Below are positions 6,779 to 23,364 of a DNA stretch of 24,403 nucleotides, piece after piece. A program made the position numbers and the translations under genes. The stretch is from a virus. Taxonomy: Duplodnaviria > Caudoviricetes. The notes beneath the pieces were generated by a model. That model saw only the letters and a list, made by a program, of their open reading frames with translations, did not search any database and had not been told where the DNA came from. Location of the stretch: positions 1 to 24,403 of IMG/VR virus record IMGVR_UViG_3300012940_000883; one strand, given 5' to 3'. Within the stretch, counting starts at the first letter, position 1, and every line of letters starts with the position of its first letter.

Positions 6779-6807
6779 TTGACACATGCCGTTGAAACGT
6801 GCGTGCT
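6779..6807 (+). promoter_or_regulatory. possible promoter for the HTH/late region
   Basis: Perfect TTGACA just after the stop at 6774; the -10 is poor (CGTGCT). Confidence 0.3.
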
Positions 6808-6822
6808 CATGGCGGGGCACGC

Positions 6823-7002
6823 ATGGGGAACGACAAAGCGGCAATTCTTGCCGCCGAATCAGCACGAAGACGCAAAGAGCGCGAGGAGCGCCGGGCGAAA
6901 GCCTTGGCCCTCCTCGCTTCTGGCGTTTCCGCCATTGAGGTTGCGTCTCGGCTGAGAGTCTCTCCGCGCACCGTGCGCGCTTGGCGCCAGGGGGCCGCAT
7001 GA
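6823..7002 (+). CDS. helix-turn-helix DNA-binding protein
   Basis: RAKALALLASGVSAIEVASRLRVSPRTVRAW is a homeodomain-like HTH pattern. Confidence 0.8.
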   Translation: MGNDKAAILAAESARRRKEREERRAKALALLASGVSAIEVASRLRVSPRTVRAWRQGAA

Positions 7003-8531: not shown

Positions 8532-8996
8532 ATGGGCGACAACGACGAGACGAAGAACGCTGAGAAGCTGCCGCCCGCGTGGGACCGCAAGGGCGGACTG
8601 ATTCCTGGGCGCGGTAGCCTCAACCCTGGAGGCAAGCCCAAGTGGGTGAAGGAGTTCCAGATCGTCTTCCGCGACAGGTTGGCACAGCGCGCCGCCGATG
8701 TCCTGGAGAGGGTCATGGACAGGGCCCTCAACGTCGAGGACATCGAGAAGGCTGTGAGAGAGGCGGAGGCGCAGAACAAGCCCCACGTTATCGCCAGCCT
8801 CGAAGGCGCGCTCAACGAGCGCTACAAGCAGGCAACCAACGCGGCCGGGCACGCTTTGAAGTATATCCTGCCCGTCGTGAAGATGGACAATAAGCCGACG
8901 CCCGAGGAGCGGGAGGAGGCTTCCGCGCTGCGGAAGCTGTCGACTGGCGAGTTGCTGGCGCTGGCGAGGAAGCGGGAGAAGGGCGAAGAACACTGA
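8532..8996 (+). CDS. terS: terminase small subunit
   Basis: GxSxNPGGxPK (DUF5681-like) motif, a C-terminal LRKLSTGELLAL helix, and position directly upstream of TerL. Confidence 0.75.
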   Translation: MGDNDETKNAEKLPPAWDRKGGLIPGRGSLNPGGKPKWVKEFQIVFRDRLAQRAADVLERVMDRALNVEDIEKAVREAEAQNKPHVIASLEGALNERYKQATNAAGHALKYILPVVKMDNKPTPEEREEASALRKLSTGELLALARKREKGEEH

Positions 8997-10486
8997 TGGA
9001 TGACTTGACGCCCGAGGAGTGGGACGCACTACGCCACGACGCCATGGAGGAGTTGTGGCGCCGTGGTGAGGTGTGGCCACTCCTTGAGGCGCTGTTGGAC
9101 CGCGACCAGCTGTCGGATGCGCGCGCCATTTTCGAGGGCTGCGACATCCAGCGAGGACAGTTGCCGCAAGACGATTACGTGCTGGACATCAGCCGCCAGC
9201 GCGGCAAGTCGTGGCTGTGCTGCGTGCTGTGGGTGGTGCTGTGCCGATGCCTTTCAGGATTCATCGTCAAGTATTGCGCCCAAGAGCAGAAGTCCGTTCG
9301 CGCCATCGTACAGCCCACCGTGGACGCCATTCTCGTTGACTGTCCGCCCGAGTGGCGCCCGCGTTTCGTGCCGGATGACTCGAAGTGGGTTTTCCCGAAT
9401 GGCAGCAACTGCACGGCTGCCGGTGCGGACAACAAGCAGTACACCGCCCTTCGTGGCCAGAAGAGTCACCTGAACATTAAGGACGAGTCCGCATTCTATT
9501 CGGACTATGAGGCCGTGGAACGCGTCCTGGCGCCGCAGACGCAGACGACGAAGGGCTTTGCGATTGACGCCTCCACGCCTCCTGAATCTCCGGGGCACCC
9601 GTATACCACGGTAGCCAAGGCGGCGAAGCGGCGTGGGCGGTATTCGCACCGCACCATCTACAACCACCCGCGCATGACTCCCGCCGAGGTGGACTCCTTC
9701 TTGCGCAAGGAGGCCGCCAAGAAGGGTCTCACGCTGGAGCAATTCAAGGAGACATCTTACTACAAGCGCGAATTTCTCTGTCAGCACGTCGTGGAAGAGG
9801 CGCGCGTCATCGTCCCTGAGTGGCAACACGTGGACGAGTCGAAGGTTGTTGTCGACCACCCGCGCCCGGTGCGGTACACGGCGTACTCCGTTATTGACCC
9901 GGGAGAGACGCGCAGCCTCTTTGTCGGCCTCCATGGCTTCTGGGACTTCGTTCTGGGCGTGCTTCATGTAGAGCGAGAGACGGTGCTTCGCTATCCATCC
10001 ACTTCGGAGTCCGGAGAGGCGCTGGTGGAGGCTGAGCGGGTGTTGTGGAAGGACGATTTGGCGAATGGACGGATTGACGCAATTATCCGCAAGTCAGACG
10101 TGGATGTGACGCTGATTCGGGACCTCAACAAGCACCCTTACAACCTGCCTTTCGAGGCCACAGAGAAGACGAATGCGGATGCCGCGCGCAACGCCACACG
10201 CGCCGCCATTGCCAGCGGGCAGATTCTCATCAGCCCCAAGTGCAAGGTGCTGCTGCTGACGCTCGACACGGGCATTTGGAACAAGCAGCGAACCAGCTAT
10301 GAGTTCAGCGAGCAGACGGGCCATGCCGACGCGTGGGACACGTTGTGCTATATGTGGCGCAACGTGCAACGCAACCGCAACCCCATGCTGACGGTGCCCG
10401 CGCACGTACATATTCCGGGGCAGCAACTGCCGCGCACGCCCGCGCAGGCGGCCTTCAAGGGCGCTTTCAAGAGGATTGGGACATGA
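8996..10486 (+). CDS. terL: terminase large subunit
   Basis: Walker A ISRQRGKS, LRG then Walker B NIKDES, motif III ASTP, YKREFLC, nuclease VIDPG and C-terminal GHADAWDTLCY. Confidence 0.92.
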   Translation: MDDLTPEEWDALRHDAMEELWRRGEVWPLLEALLDRDQLSDARAIFEGCDIQRGQLPQDDYVLDISRQRGKSWLCCVLWVVLCRCLSGFIVKYCAQEQKSVRAIVQPTVDAILVDCPPEWRPRFVPDDSKWVFPNGSNCTAAGADNKQYTALRGQKSHLNIKDESAFYSDYEAVERVLAPQTQTTKGFAIDASTPPESPGHPYTTVAKAAKRRGRYSHRTIYNHPRMTPAEVDSFLRKEAAKKGLTLEQFKETSYYKREFLCQHVVEEARVIVPEWQHVDESKVVVDHPRPVRYTAYSVIDPGETRSLFVGLHGFWDFVLGVLHVERETVLRYPSTSESGEALVEAERVLWKDDLANGRIDAIIRKSDVDVTLIRDLNKHPYNLPFEATEKTNADAARNATRAAIASGQILISPKCKVLLLTLDTGIWNKQRTSYEFSEQTGHADAWDTLCYMWRNVQRNRNPMLTVPAHVHIPGQQLPRTPAQAAFKGAFKRIGT

Positions 10487-10716
10487 GCCTGGGGCTGCCT
10501 CCGCTGCGCATTTCGCTGACGCCCGAGACGCACCGCGCGCTGGAAATCTGGCTGCAAGCCTGCATTGAGCGCGTGGAGCGCGAGGGCCGTATGGCGTCGC
10601 TGGAGGGCGGTGAGTACCGGGGCCGCGTCAACGGTGCGAAGAGAATGGCCACACTCCTGTCCGAGACTTTGACGCCCGTGAAGCAAGGCGTAGAGTCGGA
10701 ACAGGAGGAGGCATGA
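10483..10716 (+). CDS. hypothetical protein inserted between terL and portal
   Basis: ATGA overlaps at both ends. Confidence 0.6.
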   Translation: MSLGLPPLRISLTPETHRALEIWLQACIERVEREGRMASLEGGEYRGRVNGAKRMATLLSETLTPVKQGVESEQEEA

Positions 10717-16457: not shown

Positions 16458-16736
16458 ATGGCCCTGACTGCGCAGAAGGCGTTGGAAATGCTGACTGACC
16501 TCGAAGGGTGGCTGTCCATGAAGGCCGCCGAGGAGGCGGGCATGGATGAGCCCGACGAGCCTCCCTCCGAGGAAGCCATGGAAGGCGCTGGCGAGTCTGG
16601 CGCCCCTCCTGGTGCCGGGGACAAGGGTGTGGGCGTCGTCATCGCGCTCAAGCCCAAGGGTGGCCCTGGCGGCGAGAAGGTGCCTGGGTGTGCCGACTGC
16701 GAGGCTGGCACGCCTCACCAGCACATGGGGCGCTGA
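16458..16736 (+). CDS. small acidic protein with a C-terminal CxxC-x5-HxH motif
   Basis: GAGGTG RBS; last gene before the terminator. Confidence 0.7.
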   Translation: MALTAQKALEMLTDLEGWLSMKAAEEAGMDEPDEPPSEEAMEGAGESGAPPGAGDKGVGVVIALKPKGGPGGEKVPGCADCEAGTPHQHMGR

Positions 16737-16754
16737 CTCGGCGCCGCAGACTTC

Positions 16755-16794
16755 GCCCGGCCAGTGCTTCGGCGCTGCGCCGGGCTTTCTTTTT
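16755..16794 (+). terminator. Rho-independent terminator ending the head operon
   Basis: GCCCGGC-CAGTGC-TTCG-GCGCTG-c-GCCGGGC stem with a cUUCGg loop followed by TTTCTTTTT. Confidence 0.85.
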
Positions 16795-16805
16795 GAGAGG
16801 CCACC

Positions 16806-17762
16806 ATGGCACAGGGCGACACCGCCGCACTCCTCAAGTCGATTCGCGGGCACACCCAACTGCCCACGGCGCAAATCACCTTCGACAACGCCACCACTCT
16901 GGAGATTGCGACAGAGGAGTTGTACTCCTACTTGCTGCCGACGCTACTCCAGGAGAGGCAGGAGTTTTGGACGGGGGCGCAAGGGCGCTACACCATTGCG
17001 TTACAGGAGGGCGTTGGAGTGTACCCCATTCGCCCGCGCGCGGCGGGCATGAAGATTCGCAGCGCACGGCTGCTGGACATCGTCGGCACGCCAACGCCAC
17101 TGGCCACCTATGAGTTGGAGGACGTCAACAAGTGGGTGCAGGACTCGGGCTACCCTTCGGGCTTGGTGCTGGAGGGCGGAAGTTTCCGCCTCTTCCCAAC
17201 GCCGCGTGGACTGGCCGGCTGGAGCGTAGAGGTGCAGACGTACCTGCGGCCCGCCGCGCTGGTGGAGTCCATTCGGTGCGCCGTCGTCAACAACATCCTC
17301 CCGGTGCCCGCTGGCCAGACGAGCGTCCAAGTCCTCATCAACGCTGACAACATGGACCTGATTTCCGGTGTTGGCACGCTGGACATTGTCCGCAGCACGC
17401 CGCCGTTTGAGGGCGTCGCCGTCAACGCGGCGCTGACGGATGCCATCAACATGGGTGGCTCAAGCTACCAGCTGATTTTCGCTGGCACTTTCGACGTTGC
17501 CGAAGGGGATTACGTGTGCTTGCCAGACACGGCGCCCGTGGTGCAGGCGCCCCTGGAGTGGCACCCGCTGCTGGCCCTCAAGGTGGCCGCGCGCCAGCTG
17601 GCCTCGGTGGGCGACACGGAGATGGCATCCGTCAAGGCAGCCGAGTTGAAGGAGAAGGAGGCGAAGGTAGGCATCGTCATTCGCCCGAGGCGTGAGGATG
17701 CAGGCCGAAAGGTGGGCAACGGCACCTCGAAGTGGCGCAGCGGCTGGCCCTCCACGTGGTGA
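16806..17762 (+). CDS. head-tail adaptor (tail tubular A / gp4-like) protein
   Basis: Position; N-terminal helices; central F(R)LFPTP beta region; C-terminal PLEWHPLLALKVAARQLASVGD adaptor-like motif. Confidence 0.7.
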   Translation: MAQGDTAALLKSIRGHTQLPTAQITFDNATTLEIATEELYSYLLPTLLQERQEFWTGAQGRYTIALQEGVGVYPIRPRAAGMKIRSARLLDIVGTPTPLATYELEDVNKWVQDSGYPSGLVLEGGSFRLFPTPRGLAGWSVEVQTYLRPAALVESIRCAVVNNILPVPAGQTSVQVLINADNMDLISGVGTLDIVRSTPPFEGVAVNAALTDAINMGGSSYQLIFAGTFDVAEGDYVCLPDTAPVVQAPLEWHPLLALKVAARQLASVGDTEMASVKAAELKEKEAKVGIVIRPRREDAGRKVGNGTSKWRSGWPSTW

Positions 17763-18003
17763 CAAGGGGAGTTTGCGTGACTGAGAGTGAACTTGTGTTA
17801 AATGGCGGACACCACCATCCCGTGAGGGTTTGTGGCTACCCATTGAAAACGAGGCGCATACGCGTCCCATCTTTCTCGTCCCTGTCCTGCTGTTGGCATG
17901 TGGTGCTGCCAAGCCCAAGTGCCCTCCCGTCAACTCCGCGCCGCCGACGACATGCGGTCTCAACCAGACATGCGAAACCGAGTGCGGAATTTGGGGGCCT
18001 GAA

Positions 18004-20520
18004 GTGAGTACCCAAGTATTCGCGGCAAAGGGGCTCTACCGTAGCCCCAACTACGTCTCGGATGTGCCTGCTGGTGCGGCGCTGGTCGCGGACAACCTCG
18101 TTGTGCCGCGCCCGGATATCTACGAGACGCACCGAGGCGCGGAGCGTCTGCCGGGCGTGTTCCCGGACGGCGTGGACATCACTGCCATGGTGGAGTTCCG
18201 AGGCGTCCTCATCGCCTATGGCGCTGGTCGCCTTGCGCGCTACTCCAGCGGCACGTGGGTTCAGTACACGGGGACCTACCTTCCGCCCGATGGTCCGCTG
18301 CGAGATTCAGAAGGGGAGATGCTCCCTGGCCGCGTCATCTTCCACGAGGTGGGCGAAGCGCTGTATTTCACCACGTCAAAGGGCGTCTTCCGTCTGGAGG
18401 ATCCTCTCTCACAGCCTGAGTTGTCGGGCGTTATCCAAGCGCTTGCTGGAGTCGTCACGCTGTCAGTGGGAGTCGGGACGGCGCTGCCCCCAGAGTCCTC
18501 AGTTGCGTTCCGCTATGTCTGGGGGAAACGGACGACAAAAGGGCGGCTGATTCTGGGCGCTCCCTCCGGACGCATGGTGATCTACAACACCAGCACGACC
18601 GACGCGAAAGACGTTGTCCATGCGGTTCCGGTCCCTGCTGAGGTTCGCGATGTAGACGGCTATTTCCTGCAAGTCTACAAGTCGCAGACCTTCCCGCTCA
18701 ATGTCGCTCCAGACGATGAGATGGCGCTGACCTATGAGCGCGCCGTCTCCGAGATGGGGACTGGTTCAGTCTTCACCTTCAGCGACATCGACCCAGAACC
18801 ACGTGGCGCTGCTGCGTATTTCGCTCCCAGTGTCGGATCTCTTCAAGACTCGAAGTATCGGCCGCCGATTGCTACGGACATCATCACCTTTGGTGGGTCG
18901 ACAGTCTTTCTGAATGCGCAAGGGCCGCAATCCATCGATCTTACTCTGCTGGGTGTCGGAGGGCCTAACGGCCTTCAGGTCGATGACGGACTAATCTTCC
19001 GCTTCGCGGATGGCACTGCCGAAAGCTACTATGGAGCCACGTCCGAGGGGCTTCCGGGCAGTGGCACCTTCCAGGTCTATACGACCGGGACTCCCGCCCA
19101 AAACATTGCCGACACGACGAATAGCCTCCTGCGAATGATGAATCGCCGTACCAACGGGAAGCTGTACGGGCAATACTTGTCCACCGACAACGACTTCCCA
19201 GGGCAATTTCAGGTGTCGGCACGCACTCTAGATCAGCCTGCGATCATCGTTCGCGCTGGGCAGACCCGGCCCTGTTTCGCCCCTGACCTCAACGTCCTAC
19301 AAATCCCATACTCTGTGTCCAGGAGTGCTGGCGTTGTGACGGTGACGATGTTTGCCGGGTATCCTCACGGATTCAACGTTGGCGATACTTTCGTATGGAG
19401 CACAAACCCGACCGACGCCATCAACTTCCCGCCTGGAGTCAAGACGGTTGCAACCGTCGTCGATTCACTGACGTTCACCTACAACGAGGCTGGCCCTAAT
19501 GCGGTAGTCGCGTTGACGGGGAGCACAATCATTCGAGACGTTCCAGACGTTGAGACAATCGCATCGGTCTATTCGGTAGCGTGGTCTCCGCTCCAAGAAC
19601 CAGATGCGGCGCCAGTGCTCCAAAACGCCCAGGCTGGCAACCCCGATTTGCCGGTGCTGCGCGCGCTGCTGCTGGACAATAGCCTCTATCTCCTCAAGGA
19701 GGACGGTCTCTTCCGGCTGAGTGGTAGCACGCCCAACACCTTCGCGGTGGACGCCTATGACACGACGGTGTCCTTCCGCTCGCCGTGGGCCTCATGGACG
19801 CTGGGCGGTCGTGCCTATGCCCTCACCACAGAGGGACTCAAGGTGTGGAGCGAGTCCGCCAAGCCGCAGCCGGCGAGTGTCTCTATCGAGCAAGACTTGC
19901 TCGACCTGATGGGGCAGTTCCCGGACGCCGTCAACAGCCTCTCGTTCGTCGTCAACTACGAGTCGGAGCGTCGCCTCTACCTATGGCTGCCCACGAGCAA
20001 CGACTCCGTGTCGGCGGACGCGGCGTGGGTGTACTCGTATTTGACGGACACGTGGACGCGATACGTGCAACCAGCAAATACCGCGATTGTCTCGCCGGAA
20101 CTCAATCGAATGGTGATTGCGCCCCCTGGCTCGCCGCAGCTGCTGCGCGAGCGCAAGACGCGCACCAACGCGGATTTCCAGGGCCCTGACGGTGAGGCGA
20201 TTCCCGTCGCGTTGGAGTACACGGCACAGGTGGGGGGCAGCCCGCTCGACTCCAAACAGTGGAGCCGCTTCTCGTGGCACTTCGAGGCCCAGACACCTTC
20301 GGTGGTGACGGCCTCCTACCGCACCGAAATCACCCTGGACCCACAGGTGGTGACAATTCCCGGAAGCGGCACCGCGTCCTCGGGCATCCTTCAAACGCTG
20401 GTGCCACCCGAGACAGCGCGGAGCCAGTACCTCTACAGTCGTATTGAGCATGCGGTGGCCCAGCAGCCATTCCGCTTGCTTGGCTACGTGGTGCGGCACC
20501 GCAACTACCGGCAGAAGTGA
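18004..20520 (+). CDS. tail nozzle / stabilisation protein (tail tubular B / P22 gp10-like)
   Basis: About 838 aa, beta-rich, following the adaptor. N-terminal GLYRSPN...PAGAALVADN and late AWVYSYLTDTWTRY are typical. Start placed at GTG 18004; the frame is open upstream to 17830. Confidence 0.72.
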   Translation: MSTQVFAAKGLYRSPNYVSDVPAGAALVADNLVVPRPDIYETHRGAERLPGVFPDGVDITAMVEFRGVLIAYGAGRLARYSSGTWVQYTGTYLPPDGPLRDSEGEMLPGRVIFHEVGEALYFTTSKGVFRLEDPLSQPELSGVIQALAGVVTLSVGVGTALPPESSVAFRYVWGKRTTKGRLILGAPSGRMVIYNTSTTDAKDVVHAVPVPAEVRDVDGYFLQVYKSQTFPLNVAPDDEMALTYERAVSEMGTGSVFTFSDIDPEPRGAAAYFAPSVGSLQDSKYRPPIATDIITFGGSTVFLNAQGPQSIDLTLLGVGGPNGLQVDDGLIFRFADGTAESYYGATSEGLPGSGTFQVYTTGTPAQNIADTTNSLLRMMNRRTNGKLYGQYLSTDNDFPGQFQVSARTLDQPAIIVRAGQTRPCFAPDLNVLQIPYSVSRSAGVVTVTMFAGYPHGFNVGDTFVWSTNPTDAINFPPGVKTVATVVDSLTFTYNEAGPNAVVALTGSTIIRDVPDVETIASVYSVAWSPLQEPDAAPVLQNAQAGNPDLPVLRALLLDNSLYLLKEDGLFRLSGSTPNTFAVDAYDTTVSFRSPWASWTLGGRAYALTTEGLKVWSESAKPQPASVSIEQDLLDLMGQFPDAVNSLSFVVNYESERRLYLWLPTSNDSVSADAAWVYSYLTDTWTRYVQPANTAIVSPELNRMVIAPPGSPQLLRERKTRTNADFQGPDGEAIPVALEYTAQVGGSPLDSKQWSRFSWHFEAQTPSVVTASYRTEITLDPQVVTIPGSGTASSGILQTLVPPETARSQYLYSRIEHAVAQQPFRLLGYVVRHRNYRQK

Positions 20521-20524
20521 TTTC

Positions 20525-20554
20525 TTGACTCGCACGGAGAGTCCGGTACTCTCC
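20525..20554 (+). promoter_or_regulatory. sigma70-type promoter with overlapping palindromic operator
   Basis: TTGACT-N16-TACTCT. The inverted repeat GGAGAGT-ccggt-ACTCTCC (20536-20554) overlaps the spacer and -10. Confidence 0.55.
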
Positions 20555-20559
20555 ACCTC

Positions 20560-20685
20560 GTCACTGGCGTCCTCCCAGTGGCCGTGCGCATCCTAGGCAT
20601 GCTTCCTCCTGCACAAGGCTGCGGGCTCCACTGGGCAACTGGTGGGGCCCGTAGTCTTTGGGTGTAGCCAACCCAAGGAGGCTGT
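20560..20685 (+). ncRNA. candidate structured sRNA or cis-regulatory leader
   Basis: Four successive stems, including a 20-bp helix with five G-U pairs closed by a GCAA (GNRA) tetraloop, and two CCUCC motifs. Confidence 0.55.
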
Positions 20686-21336
20686 ATGCGAGTCGCTGTG
20701 CTGCTGTTGCTGTGTGTGGCGTGCAGTGGGCCCTCGGAGTACGAGCGCGGGGTGTTGACGCGTCCTCCGCCCTCAACGACGTACACCCCGCAGGGTGCTG
20801 GCGCGCCCATGCGTGGTCAGCCAGGAGAGGCCAAGCAGGACGTGCCGCGCAGCCCCAACCGGCGCGTGCTGCCGCCAGAGTCGCGCCCTGGCATTTGGGC
20901 AGCAGACGAGAATGCGCCTAAACCCAAGCGCAACGTCAATCCCCAGGCCAACGCCAACCGCACCCGCGCGCCCATGGAGGACACTCCAGCCGGGATTCCG
21001 GATGCTGCATGGAAGGCGTGCTGGGACACTACCCAGAAGTGCCTCAACAACTACGAGGACACGTCCTACTACTCGGACGCGGACTATGACTGTATGCGCT
21101 GGTGGCTGCTGGTGGCGTGTGGCACCTCCGCCAATGGCTTCACAGAGTATCGCCCGGAGGTGGCGCAGAAGTGGGGAGAGGGGTGGGACACTAAGCGTTA
21201 CATCGACGCGTCCCATGAAATCCGCAGCATCGTCTGCCACTACGTGCCAGACATGCCGCGCCGGCTGAGCAAGGACTATGAGCGCCTCGCAGGCGCATGC
21301 ATGCCTCAGTGGAGGGCCCTTTTCACCGCGCCTTAG
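20686..21336 (+). CDS. lipoprotein (moron), Pro-rich linker plus Cys-rich domain
   Basis: AAGGAGG RBS, MRVAVLLLLCVA|C signal peptidase II-type signal, and six Cys in the C-terminal domain. Confidence 0.8.
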   Translation: MRVAVLLLLCVACSGPSEYERGVLTRPPPSTTYTPQGAGAPMRGQPGEAKQDVPRSPNRRVLPPESRPGIWAADENAPKPKRNVNPQANANRTRAPMEDTPAGIPDAAWKACWDTTQKCLNNYEDTSYYSDADYDCMRWWLLVACGTSANGFTEYRPEVAQKWGEGWDTKRYIDASHEIRSIVCHYVPDMPRRLSKDYERLAGACMPQWRALFTAP

Positions 21337-21404
21337 TTGCCAGCGAGTGCCACGAGTGTAGAGTCCGCCTGCCGCCCACGGGCGGACTCACACAGAGGTG
21401 ACAC

Positions 21405-21647
21405 ATGGCAGGGATGTACCGATTCGCAGTCAAGGGCGGTGGTTTCGCACGGGTGGACCCAACGCAGGTCCGCTCGATTCTCCCCAGCGGCGGAGAGTCC
21501 TCGGGCTACTCCAAGCTGGTGCTGGATGGAGGGCACTCGGTGACGGTTGAGGGGATGGTCGAGCGACTCCACGAGATCCTCTGCCAGTACACCGTGGCGC
21601 CCATCGCGCCCGACCAAACTGAGGAGTCTCCCGTCAGCGTCGGATAG
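21405..21647 (+). CDS. small hypothetical protein (FlbD-like beta pattern)
   Basis: GAGGTG RBS. Pattern VDPTQVRSI...SKLVLDGGHSVTVEGMVERLHEIL. Confidence 0.65.
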   Translation: MAGMYRFAVKGGGFARVDPTQVRSILPSGGESSGYSKLVLDGGHSVTVEGMVERLHEILCQYTVAPIAPDQTEESPVSVG

Positions 21648-22020
21648 TCGTTCCCGGCCGCTCCACCCTGCCCACAGGCTTCCAGCAGCGCCCCTTGTGC
21701 TCCCAGAGGTTGCGGGGGCACGGGGGCGCCGGGACTCCACCATCTGGGTAGGCTGGTAGCACCCAGCACGCTCCGTTGATTTCCACCTCCACCTCACCGC
21801 AGGGCGGCCGGCGCCAGTTGTCGCTGGGCGTCTTGGGGATGGGGGTGGACATCAACTCCAGGACAGAGGACAGCGCCACATCTGATTCGCAAGGCGCGGC
21901 CTCTGCCCGCACGGGCGGCGCATTGCGGCGCAGTAGGTGGGACTCCCCAACGTGCCACAGGAGGGACAGGGAGCAGGCGGCCAAATACCAGGGCCACCGC
22001 TTGGAGTGCAATCGGTACAT
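21634..22020 (-). CDS. membrane-anchored or secreted Cys-rich protein resembling the C-terminal domain of myxobacterial Ser/Thr kinases
   Basis: Hydrophobic WPWYLAACSLSLLW, then PIPKTPSDNWRRPPC-x-EVEINGACW...PPCP...WEHKGRCWKP. No kinase domain is present. Confidence 0.65.
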   Translation of the reverse strand: MYRLHSKRWPWYLAACSLSLLWHVGESHLLRRNAPPVRAEAAPCESDVALSSVLELMSTPIPKTPSDNWRRPPCGEVEVEINGACWVLPAYPDGGVPAPPCPRNLWEHKGRCWKPVGRVERPGTTIRR

Positions 22021-22062
22021 GCCGCCAGTGGACCACGGCTTAACCCGCAAGTCACGCTCGGC

Positions 22063-22091
22063 TTGACTCCCGGGCGACATGCACACAGACT
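22063..22091 (+). promoter_or_regulatory. promoter for a probable leaderless mRNA
   Basis: TTGACT-N17-CAGACT, with the ATG at 22098 six nt later and no SD. Confidence 0.5.
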
Positions 22092-22097
22092 GGCGTC

Positions 22098-22553
22098 ATG
22101 CTCTCGCTAATCCGCCGACTCTTTCGCCGTGAGCCGCCGCACCTGAGAGGTAGGGTGCCCGCCGAATGTGGCGTGGGCGTCTTTGATGACCGGCATTGCG
22201 CGTGGCCGTGGGCCAGCGGGGCACCGGGTGAACCCGCTTCCTGGTGCATTCACCAGCACCGTGCGAATGGGGATAATGCCTGTGGGCACTACGACGCCCC
22301 ATGGCGAGACCGCGACATGGAGGCAGCGCGCTCCGCCCAGCGGGCCTCAGAGGCCCAGCAACTTGCCATGCACAATGCTATCGCTCCTCCAAGGTTCATC
22401 GCGGCCAGGGACTGTTGGCACCACGATTCCATGGGGCTCCCCTTGACCGACAGGGCCATTTGGACGCCCGACATTGTCGAGTGCGACTGTCCAGCGAGGC
22501 CGAGCCCAGCGGAGAATGCCAAGCGCTACTCGCGCCCAGAGTGGACGTGGTAA
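22098..22553 (+). CDS. Cys/His/Trp-rich hypothetical protein
   Basis: 151-aa ORF filling the gap, with a promoter immediately upstream. Confidence 0.55.
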   Translation: MLSLIRRLFRREPPHLRGRVPAECGVGVFDDRHCAWPWASGAPGEPASWCIHQHRANGDNACGHYDAPWRDRDMEAARSAQRASEAQQLAMHNAIAPPRFIAARDCWHHDSMGLPLTDRAIWTPDIVECDCPARPSPAENAKRYSRPEWTW

Positions 22554-22562
22554 CCTGCACGG

Positions 22563-23330
22563 ATGGCGCCGAAACTTCCCGTCCGCAAGATCGACGAAGC
22601 CGATTGCCCCGACTTGCCGGGTGACTCCAGGACGCAGTTGCTGGAGCCACTCAACCGCAACCTGGACGTCCTGTCGCTGGCGCTGGATGCCGGCCTGACG
22701 CTGGCCAACCAGCGTGTCCTCGTCAAAACGGTGCAGGTGATTGGCCCCGACGAGTGGGTGCCGCTCACGCTGGCCCCCAACTGGGCCGCTGGCCTGGACA
22801 CCTCGGCGCCGTCCCCAGCTTACCGCTACAGCGTTGACGGCCTCTGGACGGAGTTGAGGGGTGCCGTCCGGTGGACGGGCGGCGGGAGCCCCGCTAGTGG
22901 GACGCTGGTCGCCACGCGCCTGCCCACCGCGACGGGTCGATGGCGGCATGTGGTGGACTCCGCGACGGGCTATGGCCGCGTGGACTCGTTTGGCGATGGG
23001 ACGCTGACGTACGTGACGGGCGGTGCGGCGGACCTCTCGTTGGCCGGCGCGCGCTACGAGGTGGCCAACCCCTCGTTGCCTGCTTGGGCCAAACCTCTCG
23101 ACGTCGTCCTAGGGGAGGTCAACAAGCCCCCCATGGGGCGCCCCGAGGACGTGCGCATTCTCTATGTGGAGCGGGAGGACAAGCAGCTTCCGGGCCCCGT
23201 GTCCATTGAGGGTTGGGTGGCGGGCCCCGTGTCTGCCGACAAGCGAAGCACCGTTCGCTTCAAACGCATCAACGGCCTTGCGCAAGGCGTCAAATACCGA
23301 ATCACCTTCCTCTTCCAATTGCCGGACTAG
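22563..23330 (+). CDS. tail-associated structural protein
   Basis: N-terminal LLEPLN...AL..GLT..N segment, then WVPLTLAPNW...PAYR...ELRGAV of the kind seen in tail/receptor-binding proteins; GC-rich third positions like the core genes. Confidence 0.6.
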   Translation: MAPKLPVRKIDEADCPDLPGDSRTQLLEPLNRNLDVLSLALDAGLTLANQRVLVKTVQVIGPDEWVPLTLAPNWAAGLDTSAPSPAYRYSVDGLWTELRGAVRWTGGGSPASGTLVATRLPTATGRWRHVVDSATGYGRVDSFGDGTLTYVTGGAADLSLAGARYEVANPSLPAWAKPLDVVLGEVNKPPMGRPEDVRILYVEREDKQLPGPVSIEGWVAGPVSADKRSTVRFKRINGLAQGVKYRITFLFQLPD

Positions 23331-23335
23331 TCCAC

Positions 23336-23364
23336 TTGACACGCCAGTAAGTCCGTGCGAGTCT
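23336..23364 (+). promoter_or_regulatory. putative promoter
   Basis: TTGACA-N17-GAGTCT (TG-extended) right after the stop at 23330, with a GGGAGG RBS downstream. Confidence 0.4.

Follow-up and report, generated by a model that had tools for sequence, protein, structure and literature searches.

A structured leader RNA predicted to close the translation start of a lipoprotein gene in a putative myxobacterial phage genome

Translation of a lipoprotein gene in a phage genome may be kept off by default by the leader of its own transcript. In the window analysed here (the whole stretch of 24,403 nucleotides, from a 24.4-kb virus record that is ~34% complete), a strongly structured element lies between an 896-aa virion gene and the gene for a 216-aa predicted lipoprotein, and we judge the chances about even that it is the 5' leader of a self-standing phage gene, in which the Shine-Dalgarno (SD) sequence and the AUG are both covered by pairing with a strand upstream of them. 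A pairing probability of ~1, an energetic advantage of 13.4 kcal/mol and the coverage of AUG as well as SD support this cis lock as the favoured reading. The class of mechanism, an anti-SD strand acting in cis, is already known.

Results

Folding of the leader on the plus strand

The leader region was the best-folding of 405 sliding windows tested (z -6.1), and its folding was strand-asymmetric: the plus strand gave a z of -5.44, with 0 of 200 shuffles as good, and the reverse strand a z of -0.99, with 35 of 200 shuffles as good. These results support structure at the RNA level, as a first-pass annotation of this DNA had proposed, and place it on the plus strand only. All of the non-Watson-Crick pairs in the long helix P3 are G-U (5/5), and both changes in a natural copy (X2, described below) fall in loops, although two changes alone are not significant.

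Most of the architecture drawn in that annotation was recovered. P1 (20560..20582, plus strand; pairs 20560-67/20575-82) is an 8-bp 5' hairpin with a C-rich loop, a pair probability of ~0.8 and an energy of -11.3 kcal/mol. P3 (20615-34/20639-58, plus strand) is a 20-bp helix that contains five G-U pairs, is capped by a GCAA loop and has a short U run behind it, and P4 (20659-63/20671-75, plus strand), a 5-bp hairpin of -6.9 kcal/mol with pair probabilities of 0.85-0.99, completes a three-way junction immediately beside the AGGAGG at 20676-81. P3 is the sole stem of at least 13 uninterrupted pairs on either strand of the window and contributes -37.1 of -73.9 kcal/mol, about half of the total folding energy; taken by itself, the segment 20556-20614 does not stand out from shuffles in its folding (z -1.35). 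P3 is a candidate leaky terminator or double-strand RNase site, and a terminator scan of the window does not call it. P2 (20584..20614, plus strand) stood only in part: it can be drawn, but it is weak (-5.2 kcal/mol) and is displaced in the full transcript by the pairing over SD and AUG. P2 reaches minimum energy only for some of the transcripts truncated at 20661, and several similar weak folds of the P2 type alternate in prefix-by-prefix folding; P2 is best taken as an alternative fold that may hold the anti-AUG/anti-SD strand before the ribosome-binding site (RBS) is transcribed.

An Rfam scan, which had been proposed as a check on the element, has now been run and gave no match over it: Rfam 15 returned 0 matches in the window at the gathering threshold, and at E <= 10 across 20300-22700 three weak matches were found, none over the element. 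Other strongly folding windows are 6796-6930 (z -5.5), 8956-9150 (z -5.1) and 16696-16830 (z -4.6), the last of which includes a canonical terminator at 16768.

Predicted closure of the SD and the AUG

In the full transcript, the strand 20597..20610 (plus) pairs with the start of the lipoprotein gene. Its anti-AUG part (20597-602) pairs with 20684-89 and covers the AUG, and its anti-SD part (20605-10) pairs with the SD, giving 12 bp with a probability of ~1 that enclose P3 and P4 in the three-way junction; the same strand is also the candidate seed of a small RNA (sRNA), considered in the Discussion. The SD (AGGAGG) and AUG of the gene, at 20676..20688 (plus), are predicted to be sequestered, with an opening energy of 17.5 kcal/mol. 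The closed fold lies 13.4 kcal/mol below the four-stem form of the first-pass annotation. That annotation had offered pairing of CCUCCU with the SD as one option, and this pairing was found and is thermodynamically preferred, but its dominance and the pairing over the AUG had been missed.

The lock modestly exceeds what shuffled leaders give. The RBS duplex (-19.1) compares with -13.7 +/- 2.0 for dinucleotide-shuffled leaders (68 of 5000 as good), and the RBS opening energy of 17.5 kcal/mol with 10.9 +/- 2.7 (6 of 300 as high); the opening energy falls to 10.5-10.9 when the 5' end is placed at 20603-20611, that is, when the first ~45 nt are removed. Among 22 other starts in the window, some of them guessed and one wrong, two are harder to open than the lipoprotein start. 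Members of the lipoprotein family were also compared, in a set of 25 with automatically picked starts, after filtering that removed both the window's own gene and the homologue closest to it; two of the 25, whose upstream DNA is unrelated, equal the leader's opening energy, and the set has a median of 9.7. Thus, locking is not a trait of the lipoprotein family.

In prefix folding, SD pairing is the minimum-energy state once the SD emerges. The barrier from P2-type folds is 8.1 kcal/mol at 37 C and 10.9 at 30 C, compared with ~4 without P2 and 4.1 from the 37 C prefix fold, and the P2 trap is shallow. When tried on the MS2 leader, prefix folding did not reproduce the known trap, so the kinetic delay computed here is uncalibrated. 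An RNA thermometer is unlikely, because even at 45 C opening would cost 15.6 kcal/mol, and a riboswitch reading, though conceivable, finds neither an Rfam match nor metabolic cargo. Within the window of this ~34%-complete record, no partner stands out as an activator of the lock, and no antisense promoter against the leader is seen.

A putative promoter and transcription unit

A predicted sigma-70-type promoter lies at 20525..20552 (plus strand), beginning 5 nt past the stop codon of the upstream 896-aa virion gene, and consists of TTGACT (20525-20530), a 16-nt spacer and TACTCT (20547-20552), exactly as first described; its position suggests a transcription start near 20559. The site matches 8 of 12 consensus letters and is missing from the promoter scan list because the bar of that scan was 9 of 12. 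Three of the 18 TTGAC[ACT] sites in the window carry an A2/T6 -10 box, and all three precede plus-strand accessory ORFs (20686, 22098 and 23390); none of the seven minus-strand TTGAC[ACT] sites has such a box. The likely 3' end of the unit is an 11-bp hairpin after the lipoprotein gene (21361..21389, plus strand), in which both X2 changes keep a pair (C-G to U-G at 21368 and U-G to U-A at 21380). Promoter-like sites at 22063-22091 and 23336-23364 (plus strand), and also at 21337-21364 and 10669-10696, lie ahead of ORFs 22098, 23390, 21405 and 10713, respectively, and several of the accessory promoter-like sites have a common AGTCC/GAGTC-like word, perhaps an operator or else a promoter element.

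Gene neighbourhood and probable host

The record encodes a terminase, a P22-like portal, an SU10-type adaptor and the 896-aa virion protein (Pfam/PHROG), the last of these (virion/tail gene, 17830..20520, plus strand) with a weak PHROG virion match. Distant homologues of this tail gene occur in 2 of 208 Myxococcaceae-family genomes. In two related prophages, the tail homologue is followed directly by further large same-strand ORFs, and the post-tail stretch of neither prophage has a BLASTP match to the lipoprotein; the window instead has ~2 kb of small genes between the tail gene and the next gene, at 22563. We infer from this difference that 20521-22562 is a moron insert with approximate boundaries, its left edge at the tail gene. 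The 22563 gene appears to be the counterpart of the ORF that follows the tail homologue, on the basis of position and by-eye likeness with no BLAST match. The lipoprotein gene is likely a moron of a myxobacterial podophage-like genome; a myxobacterial host is suggested by the tail homologues in those 2 of 208 genomes together with the lipoprotein's nearest relative, which is a named Myxococcus protein among the matches listed. The 80-aa ORF after the lipoprotein gene (21405) has no Pfam or PHROG match. Farther downstream on the minus strand, a 150-aa ORF (21634-22086) has no Pfam match; its end resembles the cysteine-rich tail upstream of some lipoprotein-family members in host genomes (L020, L021, L086) and presumably also the end of myxobacterial Ser/Thr kinases.

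The lipoprotein cargo

The 216-aa predicted lipoprotein (Cys13; 20686..21336, plus strand) is conserved and Pro-rich in its N-terminal part, and its C-terminal domain is helical, variable and contains four cysteines. A search with its N-terminal 80 residues gave 192 clusters at E <= 0.001 (150 of them listed), and the aligned members (46, then 140 sequences) have in common a lipoprotein cysteine and a proline-rich motif, together with four cysteines within a domain that otherwise varies. Homologues are present in 32 of the 208 Myxococcaceae-family genomes, and the leader element is absent upstream of the homologues in host genomes. Neither Pfam nor PHROG matches the window protein; 139 of 140 aligned relatives likewise have no Pfam match, and one carries DUF6310. 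In the structure model (pLDDT 81.6), a long unstructured linker leads into a helical bundle. Foldseek gives the model no match at E <= 0.001, its best VIA Z scores (7.9 against a designed protein, ~6-7 against cyclin-like bundles of helices) do not rise above background, and its Atlas matches are all under 0.8. Sixteen of the 27 listed X2 substitutions lie in the second half of the protein, which suggests that the C-terminal half may be diversifying rapidly. The substitutions cluster at 21120-21210 of the window, in the C-terminal half, and 20929-20984 is uncovered by any X2 contig. Members of the family are also found in tandem pairs or triplets in host genomes (L057/L144, L078, L005), some of them frameshifted.

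The available part of one account (PMC8546572) describes the SitA lipoprotein toxins as a ~375-aa escort domain joined to a C-terminal nuclease. Like SitA as described there, the window protein would be a lipoprotein of myxobacteria that is encoded on a mobile element and is conserved towards its N terminus but variable towards its C terminus; unlike SitA, at 216 aa it is without the ~375-aa escort domain, and a nuclease domain was not detected. In the downstream place where SitA toxins have a cognate immunity gene, the window has the 80-aa ORF at 21405, which matches no known family.

Relatives of the leader

The leader RNA is a near-orphan, real and strongly structured. No usable distant copy was found in genome sets of 151-208 or in pattern scans of IMG/VR. 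Exact P1 has 0 IMG/VR matches and the exact seed has 12; the symmetric pattern anti-AUG/anti-SD...SD/AUG has 10, plus one in the 208 genomes, all of them unrelated, and the exact-seed and symmetric-pattern matches score at most 12 bits with model R1. That model finds 0 of 151 genomes, a set with no positive control among them, and its best non-self match among 52 sources (L098, E 0.012) was rejected for its many broken pairs. BLAST of the element reaches 59 of 208 genomes with only short, chance-level pieces, and GenBank phages give no meaningful match. Scans with the lipoprotein, tail and capsid proteins gave no related locus, and a metagenome scan for one returned the window's own contig only.

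One copy, ~98% identical (144 substitutions in 7.4 kb), is present in public run X2; X1, from which the window may derive, is not independent of it, and X3 and X4 do not reach the element. Across 20521-20685, X2 differs by one substitution (20593, in the P2 loop) and one inserted base (after 20671), both unpaired in the closed fold; the insertion enlarges the P4 loop with the five P4 pairs kept, and P1 is unchanged. There are 0 changes in the 90 paired leader bases. This pattern appears consistent with the closed fold but is not significant, because 1-2 changes are expected among 90 paired bases at 1-2% divergence.

A separate multi-hairpin RNA

A different, multi-hairpin prophage RNA precedes the two closest lipoprotein homologues and recurs ahead of varied genes in Myxococcaceae-family genomes; it is ~130-290 nt long and ends in a long GC hairpin and a short U run. 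Examples lie at L143:1935-2225 (+) and L144:7181-7470 (-), with core copies at L220-L227, L231, L234 and L235. BLAST matches to it occur in 12 of 208 genomes, neither of the two loci scanned matches Rfam, and covariation amounts to 26 double-sided changes (0 of 500 shuffles) in 11 selected copies, with the structure taken from the same alignment. As a candidate new RNA family, this RNA looks better supported than the leader. The leader was rejected as a copy of it: model R2 of the multi-hairpin RNA gives 37 matches at E <= 10, none over 20521-20690, and nhmmer likewise gives none there.

Discussion

Our data suggest a model whereby transcription starts near 20559, P1 caps the 5' end of the leader, and P3 and P4 fold locally and bring 20597-20610 beside the RBS, closing the three-way junction with the 12-bp lock. 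The lipoprotein would then be made only while the lock is absent. There are two candidates for the opener. Either the weak P2 may briefly retain the lock strand on the nascent RNA, much as happens in the MS2 maturation leader, or the 5' part may be cut away, with P3 as the obvious target of a double-strand RNase. In RNase III-activated leaders, a cut in a long helix takes away the inhibitory strand; here, the 20-bp P3 helix sits between the two lock strands, and 5' truncation lowers the RBS opening energy. In addition, the same lock would damp the lipoprotein gene during read-through from the late operon.

By analogy, the closest described layout appears to be that of the MS2 maturation leader. 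In the part of the source available (PMC4615214), that leader is described as having a 5' hairpin, an AGGAGG SD engaged in long-range pairing and a metastable fold that opens a short window for translation. The leader, at ~130 nt, is like this cloverleaf in its 5' hairpin, in the upstream strand that pairs with an AGGAGG SD across a multi-arm junction and in a weaker, mutually exclusive fold that can hold the anti-SD strand on the nascent RNA, the kinetic delay being here a computed one. It is unlike MS2 as described there in belonging to a double-stranded DNA phage, in enclosing two arms rather than three and in locking the AUG as well, and we claim no sequence homology. Type I toxin mRNAs (AapA3/IsoA3, timP, hok) also hide the SD by a cis anti-SD and are activated by processing or a structural switch, according to the portions of the sources available (PMC8594479, PMC6733600, PMC13000454), and in the computed fold of the leader the SD is hidden in the same way. 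The first-pass annotation had noted this likeness, which holds for the RNA logic but not for the cargo: the toxins described in the available part of PMC8594479 are of 20-60 aa, whereas the cargo here is a 216-aa lipoprotein. No antitoxin RNA was found, nor is any antisense antitoxin promoter or other minus-strand consensus promoter seen in the window of this ~34%-complete record.

Pxr (RF01812) provides a further comparison. Like Pxr as outlined in the available text of PMC5684412 and PMC5568312, the leader has ~105 nt in three stems, a C-rich loop, a long GC-rich 3' stem with a U run and a myxobacterial setting. Identity with Pxr was rejected, with 0 matches to RF01812 at E <= 10 in the record itself; the Pxr model finds 38 of 41 Myxococcaceae-family genomes at E <= 0.05, 10 of them above the Rfam cut-off. 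Unlike Pxr, the leader is without the conserved SL1 C-run loop and the 8-bp SL3 core, motifs seen in 27 Pxr copies, and whereas Pxr has a sigma-54 promoter behind pxrR/nla19, the leader has a sigma-70-like site behind a phage tail gene. Pxr homologues below the Rfam cut-off are themselves widespread, including apparent second copies off the main locus (L198 and L199; G087:C1:7815354-7815463 and G109:C14:36304-36418). The cuckoo/RSs0680 sRNAs, which have 2-4 adjacent hairpins, each with the loop CCUCCUCCC in the part of PMC4615179 available, were also considered and rejected, since the leader has one hairpin loop with a partial motif, a second motif that is not in a hairpin loop and no Rfam match.

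The main rival reading, though we lean against it, is that the functional product is instead a ~100-nt trans-acting sRNA comprising P1, P2 and P3 (~20559-20661), which would end at P3 and silence phage or host mRNAs through a seed at 20597-20611 and the P1 loop; the lipoprotein would then be expressed by leaky read-through, and the cis pairing would be a by-product or a second role. Its size and layout parallel Pxr (a C-rich loop, a weak middle stem, a long GC stem and a U run), M. xanthus is without Hfq, and the binding sites of Pxr and MXnc1 lie close to SD regions, according to the available part of a preprint (bioRxiv 10.1101/2025.09.11.675593). Opening of the seed is cheap in the short form (5.8 kcal/mol), and in another prophage RNA family, located ahead of cargo genes, no more than 3-4 U follow the long GC hairpin at the end. 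However, the tail after P3 is three U and then a G and fails the terminator scan, whereas both Pxr and the phage's own terminator at 16768 have longer U runs, and the Pxr model gives no match at E <= 10. The seed pairs with the RBS of ORF 10713 over 14 contiguous bp, with the best cofold gain of 22 starts and a gain that beats 394 of 394 random windows, and it also shows net binding to the RBSs of ORFs 5433 and 3429. The ORF 10713 match, however, is largely expected from the cis complement, since 7 of the 64 choices of the three free seed letters match a phage RBS equally well when the letters explained in cis are kept; moreover, ORF 10713 is an orphan, with no relatives and no usable Atlas match, and its RBS lies inside the upstream ORF. 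In five host-like genomes, the exact seed complement occurs 0-3 times per genome.

P3 might also be a mere insulating hairpin between the late operon and the moron, acting as a leaky terminator, pause or processing site, with P1 stabilising the 5' end and the anti-SD pairing coincidental; we regard this as unlikely. The share of the folding energy that resides in P3, the unremarkable folding of the 5' part alone and the lipoprotein-family members without a lock all suit such an insulator, as does a lock significance of only ~1-2%, reached after the region had been chosen for its structured look. Yet a chance lock of 12 bp would be costly for a gene whose reading frame is maintained while it diverges in X2, the closure by P4 and the junction falls precisely on the RBS, and a terminator 55 nt past its own promoter needs extra explanation.

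Even less probably, the anti-SD/anti-AUG strand is the RBS and ATG of a divergent 31-codon minus-strand gene (20600-20505), and the symmetry is that of back-to-back genes. The minus strand does show a strong SD, a 4-nt spacing, an ATG and an open 31-aa frame, and several of the 10 symmetric-pattern matches in IMG/VR are ordinary divergent gene pairs. But the codon score of 0.37 is the poorest of those tested, compared with 0.55-0.72 for seven window ORFs, and ranks among the bottom 7% when 2102 open minus-strand stretches are compared; Pfam and PHROG give no match, the frame crosses P1 and the promoter, and besides the lack of a -10 box at all seven minus-strand TTGAC[ACT] sites, the promoter scan lists no minus-strand promoter there. 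Least probable, and in our view a long shot, is an mRNA-sensing switch, in which short transcripts act as an anti-SD sRNA on phage mRNAs and a phage mRNA (the ORF 10713 RBS being the best candidate) displaces the cis lock in read-through transcripts, turning the lipoprotein on only when mRNA of a lytic or superinfecting phage appears: in cofolds this displacement is energetically possible, but with the full leader the ORF 10713 RBS gives weak net binding (~-1 to -4 kcal/mol), and the RBS that was freed regains part of its pairing.

Few regulatory RNAs have been described in myxobacteria, and for myxobacterial phages we found none in the literature searched, supplementary tables aside. The cis lock proposed here is a compact leader with a single 12-bp lock that could easily be tested in M. 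xanthus. If true, it would mean post-transcriptional dosing of a member of a large, variable and uncharacterised lipoprotein family that resembles kin-discrimination or exclusion factors in layout, and if the lock strand also acts in trans, the leader would be a dual cis/trans phage RNA.
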